Shown in pieces: positions 1,452-18,737 of a stretch of 20,000 nucleotides of DNA. The translations under genes were made by a program, and so were the position numbers. The stretch is from an uncultured virus (IMG/VR IMGVR_UViG_3300020037_004263) (lineage: Duplodnaviria > Heunggongvirae > Uroviricota > Caudoviricetes), in the IMG/VR virus record IMGVR_UViG_3300020037_004263. The stretch is one strand, 5' to 3'. Positions within the stretch are counted from its first letter, which is position 1, and every line of letters starts with the position of its first letter. The notes under the pieces were generated by a model, which worked only from the letters and a program-made list of their open reading frames with translations, did not search any database and had not been told where the DNA came from.

Positions 1452-2809
1452 CCCCGTCTCTCCATCGCCGCCAATAAGATGCTCTGTACGCTCCGCTTCG
1501 TCGTCAGCCGCTCGAGCACGTCCTCGTCGATGGTGCCCCGCGCGACGATCCGGTGGACGAATACCGGCCGGTCATACCCGCTCTGTTTCTGCCGCATCGG
1601 CCCGATGCGTTCAATGATTTGTTCGTGCTCTTCGAGGTTCCACGACACCCCGAAGAAGACGATAATATTACCGCCATCCTGCAAATTGATTCCATGCCCG
1701 GCGCTAGCGGGATGGGCGACGAGCATCTGGATATTGCCCTTGTTCCAGTCCTTGATCGTCTGCGGATTGGCGTCGAGGTGGCGGGCACCGGGGAAGCGCT
1801 TCAAAATACGCGCGAGGTCGTGCTTGAAGGTGTAAGCGACGAGGACCGGCATGCCCGCAGCTTCCTCGACGACGCTCTCCAGCGCTTCCAGCTTGGCGTC
1901 GTGCAGATGCTCCCAGTCGCCGCCCTCATTTTTATAGATCGCTCCGTTGCAGATTTGGAGCAATTTTCCGGACTTTACTGCGGCGTTGGCCGCCTCGACG
2001 CCCTCCTCGCCAATCTCGGCGAAGAACTCCTTCTCCATGTCGTCGTAGTGACGGAGTACCTTACCCTTGAGATCGACATAGATCGTGTTGAATACGGGCT
2101 TGTCGACCGGCTCGCCCTTTGTCGTGAGGCAGATGTCCTTGAGCGCGGTCTGGATCTCGTCCTGCGCGTGGGCCATCGGCTCCAGTGTAAAGCCGTCGTA
2201 GCCGCGTCGGAACCAACGCTGCTCGAAGGCGCTGAATGAGTGGCCGAGGCGCTGGCCCTTGTCGAGGAACCAGCTCTGCCCCCAAAGGTCCTTGAGGCCG
2301 TTGCCCGCCGGCGTGCCGGTCAGGCCGATGAACCGCTCAACCTTGTCATGGGCGACCTTGCCGAGCGCAGCCGCGTTCTTGCCGCCCTGCCGCAGCCGGA
2401 ACGACTTGAGGCGGCTGAGCTCGTCGGCGACGACCGTCCTGAACGGCCAGTCCTTGCCGAGCGTATCGACCAGCCAGACGAGGTTGTCGTAGGAGCAGCA
2501 GTAGATGTCGGCCGGGACGTGCAGCGCGGCTGCGCGCTCCGCAGCGCTGCCGGTGGCCACCGAGACGCGCAGGTGCTGGCTGAAGGCCCACTTCTCGACC
2601 TCAGCTGTCCATGTCGACTGGATGACCCGCTTCGGCCCGAGGATGAGCGCGGGGAAGACTTCTTCGAACGTGTCGAGATCGCAGAGCGCCTTGAGCGTCG
2701 AGACCGACTTGCCGCCGCCCAGACGCATCCACAGCGCTGCGCGCGGGGTCGCGTGCAGGAAGCGGATCGCCTCGCGCTGGTCGTCGTGGGGGACGAAGGG
2801 GCGGCTCAT
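1448..2809 (-). CDS. SNF2-family (SF2) DNA helicase
   Basis: Walker A-like LGGGKS, Walker B VADELS, LTGTP, HPASAGHGINLQDGG, QIIERI; start moved to ATG 2809 (ATGA overlap with upstream stop). Confidence 0.92.
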   Translation of the reverse strand: MSRPFVPHDDQREAIRFLHATPRAALWMRLGGGKSVSTLKALCDLDTFEEVFPALILGPKRVIQSTWTAEVEKWAFSQHLRVSVATGSAAERAAALHVPADIYCCSYDNLVWLVDTLGKDWPFRTVVADELSRLKSFRLRQGGKNAAALGKVAHDKVERFIGLTGTPAGNGLKDLWGQSWFLDKGQRLGHSFSAFEQRWFRRGYDGFTLEPMAHAQDEIQTALKDICLTTKGEPVDKPVFNTIYVDLKGKVLRHYDDMEKEFFAEIGEEGVEAANAAVKSGKLLQICNGAIYKNEGGDWEHLHDAKLEALESVVEEAAGMPVLVAYTFKHDLARILKRFPGARHLDANPQTIKDWNKGNIQMLVAHPASAGHGINLQDGGNIIVFFGVSWNLEEHEQIIERIGPMRQKQSGYDRPVFVHRIVARGTIDEDVLERLTTKRSVQSILLAAMERRG

Positions 2810-3432
2810 ACGTAGTCGGCGCCCCAGTAGTCGCTGGCGCGCTCCAAGCGCTTGCGACAGGGCGGAATCCAACCGAACCGGGTGCCGTCGCCGAAGTTGT
2901 CCCAGATCACCCAGCAGTAGGCCGTGGCAGTCGAGCCGGTCTGTGTCAGGACGCCCTTGTGCATCACGACGCGCTCGGTGAACTGCAGGATCCACGACGG
3001 CGGCTCGTACAGGAACAGCTTCTCGTAGCGCCCGACGCTCTCCAGAAAGGCCGTGCGGACCAGCACGGCGGCGTTACGGCTGTCCCACCGGGCGCGCTGG
3101 ATGAATGCCTCGGCCAGCTTGAACGGCGGGTTGGTGATCGTCCAATCGACCGTGTCGCCTTGGCAGGCGAGATAGTCCATTACCGGGAACCCGGCGCCGT
3201 AGTCGTGGATATCGAACGCATCGACGCTCTTGAAATACTCGCGCAGCGGCCGGACCATGTGGCCTCGATTCGCCGACGGCTCGCGGCAGGTCTGATCCTT
3301 GAGCGAGCCGCGCTGGTCGACGATCCACTCGCACAGCGCCCGCGTCGCCCAAGGCGGCGTTGGGAAGTCGTCGGGACTATCTTTCGGCTCCGTGCGCTGC
3401 TGCATGACCGCTGAGGACGTATTCTGGACCAC
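2806..3432 (-). CDS. DNA amino-methyltransferase (N6-adenine or N4-cytosine)
   Basis: DDFPTPPWATRAL, SAM-binding EPSANRGHM, catalytic ITNPPF, TATAYCW; GTG 3432 overlaps upstream TAG. Confidence 0.85.
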   Translation of the reverse strand: MVQNTSSAVMQQRTEPKDSPDDFPTPPWATRALCEWIVDQRGSLKDQTCREPSANRGHMVRPLREYFKSVDAFDIHDYGAGFPVMDYLACQGDTVDWTITNPPFKLAEAFIQRARWDSRNAAVLVRTAFLESVGRYEKLFLYEPPSWILQFTERVVMHKGVLTQTGSTATAYCWVIWDNFGDGTRFGWIPPCRKRLERASDYWGADYV

Positions 3433-3962
3433 TACAACTTGATCCCCTGCCTGAGCGCCGCCGACACAGCCACGGCCTGCGCGATGGCGTCGTCGAGCGC
3501 GTTGTGGTGCGTGCCCTTGCTCCTGAGCGGCTTGCGGTTGTTCAACGCCAGCACGGTCCGGCAACAGCGCACGTTCCAGAAATCCCATGGCGCTTCGAGC
3601 ATCACCGCAGCGATGGCCGACTTGAGCAGCACCTCGTCGAAGTTGGCCCCGTGCGACCAGATCGTCTCACCGCCGACCGCGTCCCACCACTTGAAGAAGT
3701 CGAGCAGCACCGTCGTCAGCGGCTGCTGGTCGGGCTCAAGGGCCGCTCGCGCCTCGGGAGACTGGTCGTCCCACCACTTGGTTGTCTCGGGGTCCACGAC
3801 CAGCCCTACGGCCTCGCAGGACCCCCTCGTGATGTTCCTGTAGAAGGTCTGCGGTGTCTCGCCCGTCTGCAGGACGAACGTGCAGGCACCGATCGAACGG
3901 AGCGCGGAGCCGGGGGCGGTACCCCACGTCTCGAGGTCGAGCATGATATTTTTACCGGCCAT
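3432..3962 (-). CDS. DEDDh 3'-5' exonuclease (DUF5051 / exonuclease VIII-like)
   Basis: MLDLETWG (ExoI), WSHGANFD (ExoII), HHNALDDA (ExoIII). Confidence 0.88.
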   Translation of the reverse strand: MAGKNIMLDLETWGTAPGSALRSIGACTFVLQTGETPQTFYRNITRGSCEAVGLVVDPETTKWWDDQSPEARAALEPDQQPLTTVLLDFFKWWDAVGGETIWSHGANFDEVLLKSAIAAVMLEAPWDFWNVRCCRTVLALNNRKPLRSKGTHHNALDDAIAQAVAVSAALRQGIKL

Positions 3963-7467: not shown

Positions 7468-7725
7468 TCACACGTACTGCAAGCCGATGGCCCGCTCGTA
7501 CGTTTCGATCAACTCGTCGAGCGTGGTCCGCTCGTCCTTGTCCATCTTCATCCGCGCGTAGACCTTGCGCATGATCTTGGTGTCGTAGCCGAGCGCCTTG
7601 GCCTCCGCGTAGATATCCTTGATGTCGTCCGCCGCGGCCTGCTTCTCCTCGTCGCGGTTGCCGATGCGCTCGAAGAACTGCTTGAGGCGTTTATCCTCGT
7701 CGCCGTTGTGACCGATGCCCGCCAT
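7468..7725 (-). CDS. DUF2312/UPF0335 GapR-like DNA-binding protein
   Basis: GIGHN, RLKQFFERI, EEKQAAADDIKDIYAEAKALGYDTKIMRK, ELIETYERAIG. Confidence 0.9.
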   Translation of the reverse strand: MAGIGHNGDEDKRLKQFFERIGNRDEEKQAAADDIKDIYAEAKALGYDTKIMRKVYARMKMDKDERTTLDELIETYERAIGLQYV

Positions 7726-9579: not shown

Positions 9580-9700
9580 GTTCAAACTCCCTGTACGCAG
9601 CCTCTCGCGCTGCGGCTGCTGATTCGGCGGTCGGAAAGCTGCCGGCGCAGGCCATCCATCTCGCTGCGCCGGAGGGTGATAGACGGGCGTGGACGCTCAT
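9560..9700 (-). pseudogene. 46-aa chimeric stub: duplicated DUF2800 N-terminus fused to an AP2-domain-like fragment
   Basis: MSVHARLSPSGAARWMACAGS followed by FPTAESAAAAREAAYREF; ATG overlaps NADAR stop; GAGGAG RBS. Confidence 0.7.
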
Positions 9701-10140
9701 TGTTCGGGCTCCTCTTCGGTTTGCAGGCGCTCCCGGAGGGCCATAAGCAACCGACCGAGGTGATTGTCGCCTTTGCCGTTGCAAACACCCCAGAAGGTAT
9801 CGCCCCACTTGTTGCCTTCGACCAGATCGGCGGTGCCGGTTGCGATGAGTTTGTTTTTGAGTCCCGGATTGGTGAATTTCTGCGCCAGTAGGTTTTCCAT
9901 CACCGTCAGTTTCACGTCGTCCCAGTCGGGGCGGAGAACCGCGCGCCGCCCAAGGCGTTTGGCGTCGCCGGGCTTGGCGCAGTCGCTAACTTTCCAGCGA
10001 AAATCCGGGTCCAAACTCTTAGCGGCTACGTAGGCGTGCTCCACCGAAGGATAGCAAATTCCGTCGAGCATAACGGTCGCAGGCCAGAAGTTGGAAAGCC
10101 AACGGTACTCGCCTTGGAACTGTGCGATCGGCTCGGGCAT
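9697..10140 (-). CDS. NADAR family (YbiA-like) hydrolase
   Basis: WLSNFW, YPSVEHAYVAAK, AKRLGR, DWDDVK, QKF, LVEGNKWGDTFWG, GDNHLGRLLM; ATG 10140 overlaps upstream TGA. Confidence 0.93.
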   Translation of the reverse strand: MPEPIAQFQGEYRWLSNFWPATVMLDGICYPSVEHAYVAAKSLDPDFRWKVSDCAKPGDAKRLGRRAVLRPDWDDVKLTVMENLLAQKFTNPGLKNKLIATGTADLVEGNKWGDTFWGVCNGKGDNHLGRLLMALRERLQTEEEPEQ

Positions 10141-10679
10141 CACGCAACGACCGCTGCGTCGAGAGCATCCTGCAGCGCATCGCGCAGCTCGGGCCGACGC
10201 TCCTCGGGCACCTGGGTCGCGCGAGCGACACCGAACTGCTCGAGAACGGCCTCGATGCCGGGCTTGCCGCACTTGTCGACGACCTTGAGGGTCAGTTCGC
10301 GGATGTCCTCGATCGTGACCTCGTCAGAAGGGGATACATCCGTCTCGGCAGTCTGGCCACTGTCGGAGGTCTGCGACGTATCGTCCTGTGCAGTAGCCGG
10401 GTCCGACGATGCTGCTGTGCCCTCGTTCACAGAGGCGTTTCCCTCCGGCTCCTTCTCGGCCTTCGGCTTGCGCGGCGTGCGCGTTGGGGCGGGTTTGTCG
10501 GCCGCAGCCGCGGCATCGGCGTCGCGCACTTCTTGCATGACGGGATCGCGTTCGGTTAGCAGCATGGAGCCTTTGAGAACATCGTGGACGAACGATGTGT
10601 TGGCAGTCGTGCCGAGCAGCGCCTGAAGCTGCTTGCGCAGGTCGGCACCGTCGGTTGCTTCGATCTTCAGTTTGATCAC
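10140..10679 (-). CDS. conserved phage protein with acidic disordered linker and C-terminal helical domain
   Basis: GAGGAG RBS, GTG start; C-terminal VTIEDIR...VLEQFGVARATQVPEE pattern typical of the gene preceding DUF2800. Confidence 0.75.
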   Translation of the reverse strand: MIKLKIEATDGADLRKQLQALLGTTANTSFVHDVLKGSMLLTERDPVMQEVRDADAAAAADKPAPTRTPRKPKAEKEPEGNASVNEGTAASSDPATAQDDTSQTSDSGQTAETDVSPSDEVTIEDIRELTLKVVDKCGKPGIEAVLEQFGVARATQVPEERRPELRDALQDALDAAVVA

Positions 10680-13576: not shown

Positions 13577-14845
13577 TCATACGACTTCCAGCGCGTCGAT
13601 CGAGACCATCACGCTTTCGACGAAGCCTTTCGTGACTTCCGCGTTGACCGCATTACCGTAGCCCCGCAGAAGCCCCATTCGATTGGCAATCCCATTAGCC
13701 AGCGGGAATGAGCCGGATTCAACGGCGCGCCACGCTGGCTCTCCGTCAGGATTTCGGCACAGCAGCCAGTCTGCATCTCGCCAGAAGCCGTTAACCGGCC
13801 CCGGATCGCGAACTGCAAGTCTTTCACTGCTGCTACCGACGACACGAACCGGTTGTTCCCGGCTTGGTGCCCGTTCGCGTTCACCGGACACGTTGGTGTT
13901 TGCCACGCTACCAGCTGCACCGCCAGCGAGCAGTGCGTCACCGCCCCCGCGCCCATCTGGATGCCCCGCGCGACGCACGCTTTCTTGCGTGCCAAGTGCT
14001 GCTCCGGCGTCCCTCCCGGCTCTGCTGCTGGCGTCGGCCAAGCGCTCAGCCACGCCTGACGGCCCAGCAGGCAGTTGATCGGTACGTTCGGGCACTCCGT
14101 CCCGTCCTTGTAGTCGCGGGTGGTGGGCCACGCCGCTAGCTTCGCTACCGGGTTGAGCGCCACTGTCGCCTTGCTCCCGTCGGGCCGCTTGCCCGTCGCG
14201 CTGGCGTCCTTCGCCATCTGCGAGCCCGATGCGTTCCCGACAGTCGGAGACGGCCAGAAGGCCAGTGCTGCTGCTGCTGGCAGCCGGTCCGCGCCCTGCG
14301 ACGGACCTCCGTGCGGGCCGTCCTGCTGGCACGGTGTCGGCCAGCCATGCAAAATAGAGACGTTGACGGATGTGCGGCGCCCCGAAGCCCGCAGAGCAGA
14401 GATCGAGCGCCCCTCCGGCGTAACCCGCGCCTTCCATGTCAGCTTGTACAAGGTCGAGCCAAGCAAGTCCGTCCTTGCTCGCAACCTGCTCTCCAAGAAC
14501 GACAGGAAATCGGCGCTCCGAGATGAGATGGTAGAACGCCGGCCAAAGGTGCCGCTCGTCGTCGAACCCGCCTCGGCCGCCTGCCGCGCTGAAAGGTTGG
14601 CACGGGCAGGACCCGGTCGTGACGGGTCTGTCGTCGGGCCATCCGGCCCGGCGCAAGGCGTAGGACCAGACTCCGATTCCGGCGAAGAAATGGTGCTGAG
14701 CGTAGCCGTCGATGTCGCTTGGTCGAACGTCACGAATGTCCCTTTCGTCGACATCGCCCGGTGCGATGTGGCCTGCGTCTATCAGATTGCGTAGCCAGGC
14801 CGCGGCGAACGGATCATGCTCGTTGTAGTAGGCGCACTTCTCCAC
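13577..14845 (-). CDS. C5-cytosine DNA methyltransferase, alpha polypeptide (motifs I-VIII and X)
   Basis: FFAGIG (I), GSCPCQPFS (IV), GEQV (VI), APHIRQRL (VIII), LRGYGNAV (X); no motif IX visible in this frame. Confidence 0.9.
13609..14754 (-). CDS. nested +1-frame beta polypeptide of the C5 methyltransferase (motif IX and five WPTP modules); start uncertain
   Basis: 381 codons without a stop inside the alpha gene; [16 protein letters not shown] (motif IX-like); repeats WPTP/WPSP/WPTT/WPTP/WQTP. Confidence 0.8.
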
Positions 14846-17426: not shown

Positions 17427-17570
17427 TCACTGCTCCTCCGCGTTGATGTGGTGGATCAGCGGCGGGGTCATGCAGAGACCGGATGCAGCGATCATCACCA
17501 GAGCCGCAATGAAAGCCGTGAGCCCAAACAGGGCAAAGAACGCCGTCAGCACATTGAGCCACACCCTCAT
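17427..17570 (-). CDS. 47-aa single-helix membrane protein (not in ORF track)
   Basis: AGGAGG RBS, ATGA overlap; MRVWLNVLTAFFALFGLTAFIAALVMIAASGLCMTPPLIHHINAEEQ. Confidence 0.65.
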   Translation of the reverse strand: MRVWLNVLTAFFALFGLTAFIAALVMIAASGLCMTPPLIHHINAEEQ

Positions 17571-18472
17571 GTCGCGCACCCTCCTGTGCATTCGTCATCG
17601 GGCAGCAGGGTTACCGGCACCGACAAATCGACCTCGCGCAACGGGATGCGATCGGCGTGTAGATAGGGCATACTCTTGAAGCCCCGTGGCGGTGTGTCGT
17701 TACTGCGAATGAAGTCGTCCACTTGGCAGGCGTGCTCAAAGTCGGACGGCGAAAGCGATCGCCAGCTCTCATTCGATCGAAATGGGCAGACGCGGCAACG
17801 CGATCTCGGCGGCTTGCGGTACTGCCGTTCTTCAAGCCAGCGCACGCAACCGTTGAACGACATATCGGCGTTGAGCAGCGGATAGGTGATTGTCTGCCAA
17901 TAGGTGGCCGGGAAGCCGCCCGCGCGCAGATATTCGTCGGTGCTGATGCCTATGCAGACTTCGACTTGCGTACCTGGCTTTACACGGCAGCCCTTGGCGA
18001 TGCCGAGAATGCGCCGGATTTCCTGCGTCACCGGATCAATCTTGAGCGTCTTCGTGCAGGTCCGCCACATGCGCCCGCCGTCCGCAAGGAAGTATGGCAG
18101 CGTCACTAAAAGCTTGCCATCGGGCGGCCCCTTGGAACGCTTGATATGTTCCAGAATGCTCCCAGTTTTGCTCATAGTGCGAATAACGGGAACGCCGGTC
18201 TGCTCGATAGCGTATTCGAGGTAGTCCCAAACTTCCTCTGGTTCGTCCCCGGTGTCGCTGATAATCACGGCGTCGAACGGCGCGATCTCGCCGCGAGCAG
18301 CCTTGAACAGCAGGGTCGAAGTTTGGATTCCCCCACCGTGAGATAACACACGCAAAGTCGGGCTCTCTGGCGACGGGAATGTGGCAGCCCACATCTCGCC
18401 GGGGGATCGGCCCGCCGCTCGGTGCTGGCTCGTTTCCATCCAGTGCGCGGGAATGGCAGCAACGGCACTCAC
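17567..18472 (-). CDS. PAPS-reductase-like (adenine nucleotide alpha hydrolase) protein with Fe-S-type cysteines
   Basis: VLSHGGGIQT PP-loop variant, SDTGDE, RTCTKTLKIDP, IGISTDE..R, YPLL, PPRSRCRVCPF, ECTGGC; GTG 18472 in a GTGA overlap. Confidence 0.8.
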   Translation of the reverse strand: MSAVAAIPAHWMETSQHRAAGRSPGEMWAATFPSPESPTLRVLSHGGGIQTSTLLFKAARGEIAPFDAVIISDTGDEPEEVWDYLEYAIEQTGVPVIRTMSKTGSILEHIKRSKGPPDGKLLVTLPYFLADGGRMWRTCTKTLKIDPVTQEIRRILGIAKGCRVKPGTQVEVCIGISTDEYLRAGGFPATYWQTITYPLLNADMSFNGCVRWLEERQYRKPPRSRCRVCPFRSNESWRSLSPSDFEHACQVDDFIRSNDTPPRGFKSMPYLHADRIPLREVDLSVPVTLLPDDECTGGCAT

Positions 18473-18570
18473 CGCCCGGCCCCAACTCTGGTGCGCCCGC
18501 CCGAAAAGCTGATCAGCGCAGGCCCGGTGATCAGGAAGGGGTCTTCCATCAATGAGCGATCGGGGGTCAT
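18469..18570 (-). pseudogene. 33-aa N-terminal stub of a second PAPS-reductase-like gene
   Basis: MTPDRSLMEDPFLITGPALISFSGGRT then RVGAGR-stop; coupled to neighbours at both ends. Confidence 0.7.
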
Positions 18571-18737
18571 CAGTACGGGCTCCCATCTTCGTAATAGCCG
18601 CTGATGCCGAGGTCGATCTCGTCATCGCTAAGTTCGTCGTCAAGCTCTTCCCAGGGGCAGAACCCGCCGGTTACTTCCTCAAGCTCGCAGGAGCGCGGGC
18701 TGTAAGCGCCGCAGAAGGGGCAGAGAGGCGTGTCCAT
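18570..18737 (-). CDS. 55-aa Cys-rich acidic hypothetical protein
   Basis: GGGAGGG RBS; CPFC...C...CPW followed by acidic tail. Confidence 0.6.
   Translation of the reverse strand: MDTPLCPFCGAYSPRSCELEEVTGGFCPWEELDDELSDDEIDLGISGYYEDGSPY

Follow-up and report, generated by a model that had tools for sequence, protein, structure and literature searches.

Does the second reading frame of this phage methyltransferase gene encode a set of exchangeable DNA-recognition units? The window, a stretch of 20,000 nucleotides, is part of a 34-kb virus record. The methylase gene lies in the replication module, flanked by genes encoding a Cro-like protein and a primase-helicase, with genes for an exonuclease, a single-strand binding protein, DNA polymerase A and a helicase downstream. 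No restriction endonuclease family was found in the 25 window ORFs scanned and a cognate endonuclease is absent beside the gene. From comparison of sequences, the locus is a candidate multispecific anti-restriction methylase with plug-in recognition modules, a reading to which we assign a probability of about two in three; thanks to its modules, a single enzyme probably marks several sequences in DNA as protection from host restriction.

The replication module also contains a second orphan methyltransferase-like gene (2806-3588, minus strand), which matches phrog_799 (E 2e-49), carries TNPPF and is of the amino-methylase type. Elsewhere on the minus strand of the same phage are genes encoding a PAPS-reductase-like protein (17567-18643), a NADAR domain (9697-10272) and a GapR-like DNA-binding protein (7468-7725), together with a match to a PHROG labelled 'cysteine dioxygenase' (981-1451).

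The C5-methyltransferase gene is open in two minus-strand frames, alpha and, nested in the +1 frame, beta. Alpha (13577..14845, 422 aa) is the catalytic chain and matches PF00145 (E 3e-9) and the phrog_363 DNA methyltransferase (E 5e-73). The labels of motifs on both chains are ones that we take from general knowledge and from alignments. Alpha encodes motifs I-VIII and X, including motif I (FFAGIG, 14672..14689), the catalytic PCQ of motif IV (14597..14605), which is invariant in alpha alignment A2, motif VIII (PHIRQRLYF, 14351..14377; from a motif search and alignments) and motif X (RGYGNAV, 13646..13666), whose G and N are invariant in A2. Profile alignment revealed no motif IX in alpha; a motif IX-like segment sits in beta, so that the PF00145 motif set is spread over two chains, with I, IV, VI (EQV), VIII and X in alpha and IX in beta.

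The order of motifs at the start of alpha is unusual. Segments resembling motifs II and III lie before motif I and not after it (14600-14845), an arrangement common to 101 aligned alphas, and alignment with the M.EcoHK31I alpha profile leaves a 33-residue gap between motifs I and IV. Actinophage relatives have the usual order, with II and III after I.

Beta (13609..14754, 381 aa) consists of an N-domain, five modules and motif IX, and matches the phrog_1008 DNA methyltransferase (E 1e-24). It presumably starts at ATG 14754; relatives often have an ATG about 95-105 codons ahead of a conserved WK motif. The N-domain (14380..14514), a helix and a beta-hairpin, was predicted by AlphaFold2 with pLDDT 78-94 over model residues 1-50. 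It overlaps motifs VI-VIII of alpha, and in this region of overlap both frames are constrained. Motif IX of beta, 13 residues at 13684..13722, aligns with motif IX of single-chain relatives, which itself aligns weakly with residues 272-285 of M.HhaI, directly ahead of motif X. The comparison of the window's motif IX with that of M.EcoHK31I beta gave E 0.095.

Between the N-domain and motif IX, beta carries the array. As the first-pass annotation had read it, five modules begin at Trp codons 14343, 14256, 14130, 14040 and 13905 with WPTP, WPSP, WPTT, WPTP and WQTP, and translation of the window reproduced their spacing of 29, 42, 30 and 45 aa. The pattern W[PQ][TS][PT], picked post hoc, was sought at 39,996 positions over the six frames of the window and occurs five times, always in the array. 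Contigs from three public runs (X1, X2 and X4) span all five module starts with zero letter differences; therefore, the array is not an assembly artefact. The same annotation described the alpha frame over the array as a low-complexity linker. This label is fair because 56% of residues there are G, A, R or S and entropy is 3.49 bits, compared with 4.0 in the catalytic part. It had also proposed that the first four modules end in a similar hydrophobic helix. Similar hydrophobic ends proved to be a trait of the whole family, non-terminal modules having L at -9 (77%), A or V at -5 (84%), L at -3 (77%) and G at -1 (88%); a helix was predicted by AlphaFold2, at low to middling confidence, at the ends of A, B and D and not of C.

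Each of the five modules recurs at several positions in 299 other arrays (matches counted at ≥ 50% identity). The protein hits in this set were found using the window's own array, which biases the frequencies. Module A (14257..14343, 29 aa, WPTPCQQDG type) had 66 matches at positions 1-5, and module B (14131..14256, 42 aa, WPSPTVGNA type) had 72, also at positions 1-5. Module D (13906..14040, 45 aa), whose type is defined by a signature of ten residues, had 13 matches at positions 1-3. Module E (13807..13905, about 33 aa, WQTPTCPVN type), the end of which was defined by the parser, had 22 at positions 1-5. Module C (14041..14130, 30 aa), of the RD[WHY]K type and resembling a Dcm loop, was the most frequent, with 95 matches at positions 1-4. 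Among 156 distinct RD[WHY]K modules the spacing from W to R is 3, 4, 5 and 6 in 2, 4, 148 and 2, respectively. At a spacing of 3, module C is two residues short of its family between W and R, and may possibly be inactive or silent. Variation of this spacing from 3 to 6 suggests slippage that may switch a module off. The shortening of module C falls in a run of Thr codons. Some target-recognition domains (TRDs) of Bacillus phages are silent.

If modules are exchangeable units, their number and identity should differ among homologues in steps that leave both frames open. Relatives were collected from three viral scans, one genome scan, annotated phage records and 120 proteins. Parsing of 250 loci (L001-L089, L093 and L179-L338) gave 210 with intact beta by the search patterns; when the patterns were relaxed, 19 of the 40 unparsed loci proved to have both frames, modules and motif IX. 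The remaining 21 are truncated at contig ends, broken or divergent; L084 and L085, both intact, are among the divergent ones. Scoring of 8,000 candidates puts the family at no fewer than 3,007 protein clusters. Cultured members include epsilon15, K1H and Rhodobacter phages, and beta is annotated in three of ten proteobacterial phage records viewed.

The proposal that whole modules come and go by recombination at conserved borders, with both frames kept open, was borne out by in-frame indels and swaps among relatives, which also show reordering; modules are not invariant across homologues. Rhodobacter phages RcWhiteOak and RcMcDreamy differ by one exact module of 117 nt between 16-nt direct repeats. 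In four further pairs single-module indels of 96, 123, 141 and 141 nt were flanked by repeats of 10, 1, 0 and 4 nt, which shows that an indel can occur without leaving a repeat. Each of the five clean indels has a length divisible by 3, and the paired sequences are 85-99.8% identical apart from the gap. Two Xanthomonas phages differ by gain of one module and loss of another. More than one architecture was found in 10 of 22 clusters with ≥ 88% identical catalytic DNA, and the epsilon15 cluster has 13 architectures in 23 loci. The relative P0001 has the flanks of the window and its modules A, B and C at 92, 95 and 91% identity in the order A-x-C-B-y, where x and y are modules other than those of the window. 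DNA at the junctions is the most conserved part of the array and is therefore the likely site of crossover. Mapping of breakpoints gap by gap in pairs with unrelated modules was unreliable and was abandoned.

The repertoire is large. Arrays have one to six modules (three in 130 of 210 loci), with lengths of 29-47 aa (5th-95th percentile, first 150 loci). Clustering of the 654 modules at 55% identity gave 133 similarity types, which are approximate; 61 of these have at least two members, and the types are strung together in 155 orders over the 210 loci. Duplicate records are included in these counts. Eighteen pairs of types were found in both orders (first 150 loci), and the window's order A-B-C-D-E was found in none of the 299 other arrays. 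The same type is present twice in only one of 151 distinct arrays, compared with 15.6 expected. Such scarcity of duplicates counts in favour of the modules being TRDs, but their loss through recombination could be all that lies behind it. Types are biased in position (χ2 134, 32 df), so there is some limit on exchange; of 17 common types, 13 are represented in all three position classes and two are never last.

Dual-frame relatives with x-P-T-P modules were seen in a Paenibacillus phage and in Nostoc and Bacteroides plasmids (L090, L345 and L346), and at four plasmid loci no restriction enzyme is annotated next to a module-bearing member. Two beta homologues, P0103 and P0108, have long Cys/His-rich insertions, one after motif IX and one ahead of the N-domain, which by eye have the look of HNH or similar homing endonucleases. 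Five PCQ-bearing proteins among the beta hits all lack motif X, and the four examined are alpha-beta frame fusions, probably frameshifts.

Which frame is under selection over the array was revealed by pairing arrays as DNA. At 75-85% identity (639 HSPs), change was 0.13, 0.07 and 0.43 at beta codon positions 1, 2 and 3, the third-position excess was present in all three identity bands and 0 of 1,069 HSPs were out of register. The strength of purifying selection did not depend on whether a module was first, in the middle or last (position 2/3 ratio 0.16-0.20). A first pN/pS estimate (beta 0.24, alpha 2.09) was biased by grouping on beta protein and was superseded by this DNA pairing. Alignment and substitution tests showed alpha over the array to be unconstrained, with no conserved TRD there. 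Nevertheless, in all 210 parsed loci it stays open over the array: over 137 distinct arrays it has no stops, compared with about 419 expected from synonymous recoding of beta, and the third frame has 691 over the same arrays. Selection therefore acts on the beta modules as protein, and the alpha frame is maintained solely so that the chain extends to motif X.

These results bear directly on the possibility that the repeats are neutral expansions of the alpha linker and that beta is open by accident. In favour of this, alpha does have a low-complexity stretch with repeated LAD. Since substitutions track beta codon positions, and motif IX is in beta and absent from alpha, this origin is barely credible.

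The modules lie where an assembled C5-methyltransferase would have its TRD, as had been proposed; in each of the three chain layouts found, they occupy the variable region that separates motif VIII from motif IX. Eighty loci were found with a mycobacteriophage enzyme, 50 of them with an alpha chain by pattern. In 22 of these 50, LPTP modules are in alpha itself, between motif VIII and motifs IX-X. In 25, alpha ends after VIII and the modules, IX and X are in beta, which is the layout of M.AquI, and the remaining three are other or cut. Actinophage modules and motif IX align with those of the window (hhalign 94.5%, E 7e-8). In addition, the single-module members L009, L089, L257 and K1H have no other candidate TRD. 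The model of one single-chain actinophage relative superposes on M.HhaI (Z 22.1, rmsd 3.4, 245 residues aligned) with its modules poorly placed. In the AlphaFold2 model of single-chain L100 the catalytic part and IX-X are confident; the module region is mostly below pLDDT 65, so the docking site of the module is not shown.

Two further observations concern the actinophage relatives. The point at which the frame changes within the array varies in L099-L147, where 19 of 50 loci have modules in both chains of one gene. A module type, TPRATDG..GGPNQ, is common to actinophage relatives and proteobacterial phages.

Nested chains and tandem TRDs are each known separately, the former from M.EcoHK31I and the latter from Bacillus phages. 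In M.EcoHK31I, according to the available text of PMC2836561 and PMC3404938, beta is nested in the other frame of alpha, alpha carries motifs I-VIII as well as X, with IX in beta, and the TRD is assigned to alpha. Its gene was located via a published primer and encodes chains of 309 and 176 aa. As in M.EcoHK31I, the window's beta is wholly in the other frame of alpha, with IX in beta and X in alpha. In contrast, M.EcoHK31I (E. coli, YGGCCR) is monospecific, adjoins a restriction endonuclease, has its TL loop in alpha and has no W-x-T-P module in beta. The window does not share the assignment of the TRD to alpha, being unconstrained there over the array, and its motifs II-III have moved ahead of I. 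The N-terminal part of M.EcoHK31I beta matches the wider family's N-domain profile at 12.3 bits (best of 50 shuffles, 5.4), whereas the window's beta scores -2.1 bits against it and aligns with M.EcoHK31I beta only at motif IX. M.EcoHK31I-like genes were found in 80 of 5,426 complete E. coli genomes; in the one viewed (L341, 1514-2443) the beta chain is without annotation.

The multispecific C5-methyltransferases of Bacillus phages have tandem TRDs and are read as anti-restriction enzymes in the available parts of PMC12707154 and PMC8936443. Like the window's enzyme, those of SPR, phi3T, rho11s, H2 and SPbeta (MtbP) are orphans with tandem units in the variable region, and several units between VIII and IX are also found in the window, before IX in beta. 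The two TL-like loops of MtbP are 47 aa apart, a scale near that of the window family's 29-47 aa modules. Loss or exchange of a unit that leaves the gene unbroken is seen in both, in the window's family as natural in-frame indels and swaps, with frames judged from sequence. Unlike the window's enzyme, the Bacillus phage enzymes are single chains with a true TL dipeptide and no second frame to keep open. The TL consensus per unit is missing from the window's family, where I, L or V is present at position 4 in 3 of 520 modules. Comparison of modules with MtbP gave an hhalign probability of 0.07% and loops not above decoys, for segments that are short and fast-evolving and models of low confidence. 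Few TRD types are known in the Bacillus phage enzymes, compared with about 130 in the window's family. Thus the locus appears to be built like M.EcoHK31I and may work like a multispecific enzyme, yet it departs from a defining trait of each.

Two other systems were set beside it. M.AquI (CYCGRG) has a small subunit with the distal variable region and motifs IX and X (available text of PMC3404938); by this description its layout is that of the 25 actinophage-type relatives mentioned above, and the window's beta differs in lacking X. Some phage m5C enzymes of about 700 aa have relaxed specificity (available parts of PMC3925955 and PMC5537653); these are larger, possibly unrelated proteins, compared with the window by description. 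The available text of PMC7556043 and PMC8601537 does not mention this methylase family. No description of the module array was found in full-text literature, a coverage that leaves out most subscription papers and REBASE.

Whether the modules themselves have the features of TRDs was examined by several approaches. The published TL consensus, PT(ILV)(TASV), lies 10-50 aa ahead of motif IX, and key recognition residues are placed N-terminal of TL (available text of PMC2413257); T250 of M.HhaI is a backbone contact required for activity (available text of PMC11879396). Of 520 distinct modules, 94% have Thr at position 3, and this residue presumably corresponds to the one in TL that contacts the DNA backbone. 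Agreement with the consensus is partial: PT occupies positions 2-3 in 334 of 520 modules and position 4 is Pro in 433, while the Thr of the last module is a median of 58 aa ahead of motif IX. What lies N-terminal of the module Thr is a conserved helix, and the variable part is C-terminal of it.

The commonest module family, RD[WHY]K, matches the TL loop of E. coli Dcm (CCWGG) in register with a score of 30, TLSARYYKDG aligning gaplessly to T-x-x-x-RD[WHY]KDG. This score was reached by 1 of 210 and 0 of 167 decoys and by 1 of 500 shuffles, although the match was seen by eye before being tested. The sole decoy above the Dcm loop owed its score to chance similarity with the shifted module C of the window. 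The likeness is local, over 11 residues, and module C itself matches only after a two-residue shift. Dcm was the only one of five canonical TL loops tested to match a module; likenesses seen by eye to the loops of an NgoMIV-associated methylase, of MtbP (two loops) and of M.EcoHK31I were rejected because they failed at least one of the two controls. No profile similarity was detected between beta and either Dcm or MtbP, and a junction matrix gave no significant site in five canonical chains.

Structure prediction and genome composition added little. The AlphaFold2 model of the window's beta (pTM 0.31) is confident in the N-domain and module B only; it had no Foldseek match at E ≤ 0.001 and its best VIA Z was 3.5. 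Searches of PDB sequences with beta and its profile gave nothing at E < 0.03, and matches in the ESM Atlas were to unnamed viral clusters only. Tests of module type against under- or over-use of palindromes in flanking DNA (119 tests, 107 loci) gave a best p of 6.5e-4, and none survives correction; for the Dcm-like type and CCWGG in the flanks, p was 0.34. CCWGG is depleted in this genome (138 compared with 194 expected), but the depletion is not specific because CTAG, GGCC, CGCG and others are also depleted.

The modules might instead touch DNA jointly or loosely and give one relaxed specificity, their content setting its breadth or efficiency and not a list of motifs. Short loops, Pro in place of the TL hydrophobe and the lack of a recognition segment N-terminal of TL fit this reading, and relaxed specificity has a precedent in the possibly unrelated m5C enzymes of about 700 aa (available parts of PMC3925955 and PMC5537653). 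About 130 discrete types, with purifying selection in each unique loop, are more than it needs, and we regard it as unlikely, though it is the strongest of the alternatives. The chances are slimmer still that the modules are peptide epitopes that bind host proteins, for example those of restriction or defence, and ride on a methylase subunit. The low predicted order of the loops, with no compact fold, suits such epitopes, and fast turnover suits any arms race; their constant place between VIII and IX in three chain layouts, the single-module members with no other candidate TRD and the Dcm-loop match all speak for a part in the methylase itself.

An equally slender prospect is that one module, for example the last, is active and the others are a silent archive deployed by deletion, making the array a specificity switch. 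Direct repeats of 16 and 10 nt do flank two of the five deletions, some types favour the last place and module C of the window looks damaged. A silent archive is, however, difficult to reconcile with purifying selection that is equal in first, middle and last modules, or with the presence of 13 of 17 common types in all position classes and two that are never last.

The preferred reading of the locus is thus a two-chain orphan C5-cytosine methyltransferase. Alpha would provide the SAM-binding and catalytic domain and motif X, and beta the N-domain, the array of target-recognition modules and motif IX, the two chains assembling into one enzyme. Each module would consist of a conserved W-x-T-P anchor, a loop that differs by type and reads bases, and a short helix finishing in L-A-G. 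The catalytic core would engage a single module at any one time, as in the multispecific enzymes of Bacillus phages. The enzyme would then methylate the sum of its modules' motifs, which would protect phage DNA against several restriction systems of the host. Whole modules would be deleted, added or swapped by recombination in the conserved DNA of the junctions; because each module has a length divisible by three and no stop in the alpha frame, alpha still extends to motif X.

A broader form of this reading has somewhat better than even odds in our judgement: that phages share an interchangeable library of more than 100 DNA-recognition modules of a new type, 29-47 residues long, each adding one C5 target. 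At the same odds, this includes an anchor of TP and not TL, recognition solely in the loop after Thr and shuffling in a gene kept open in two frames. Even if the idea of specificity fails, shuffling of whole modules under a two-frame constraint is an unusual mode of gene evolution.

If each module specifies one motif, the family would offer many short plug-in recognition units that share a single fixed catalytic core, as well as a tool for multiplex methylation. The old question of a code from TRD to sequence in C5-methyltransferases would then become testable by module. If the reading is true, this is a natural programmable methylase, and its arrays would be a direct read-out of the restriction specificities that phages meet. 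Multispecific anti-restriction methylation would then extend from a few Bacillus phages to a family of at least 3,007 clusters.
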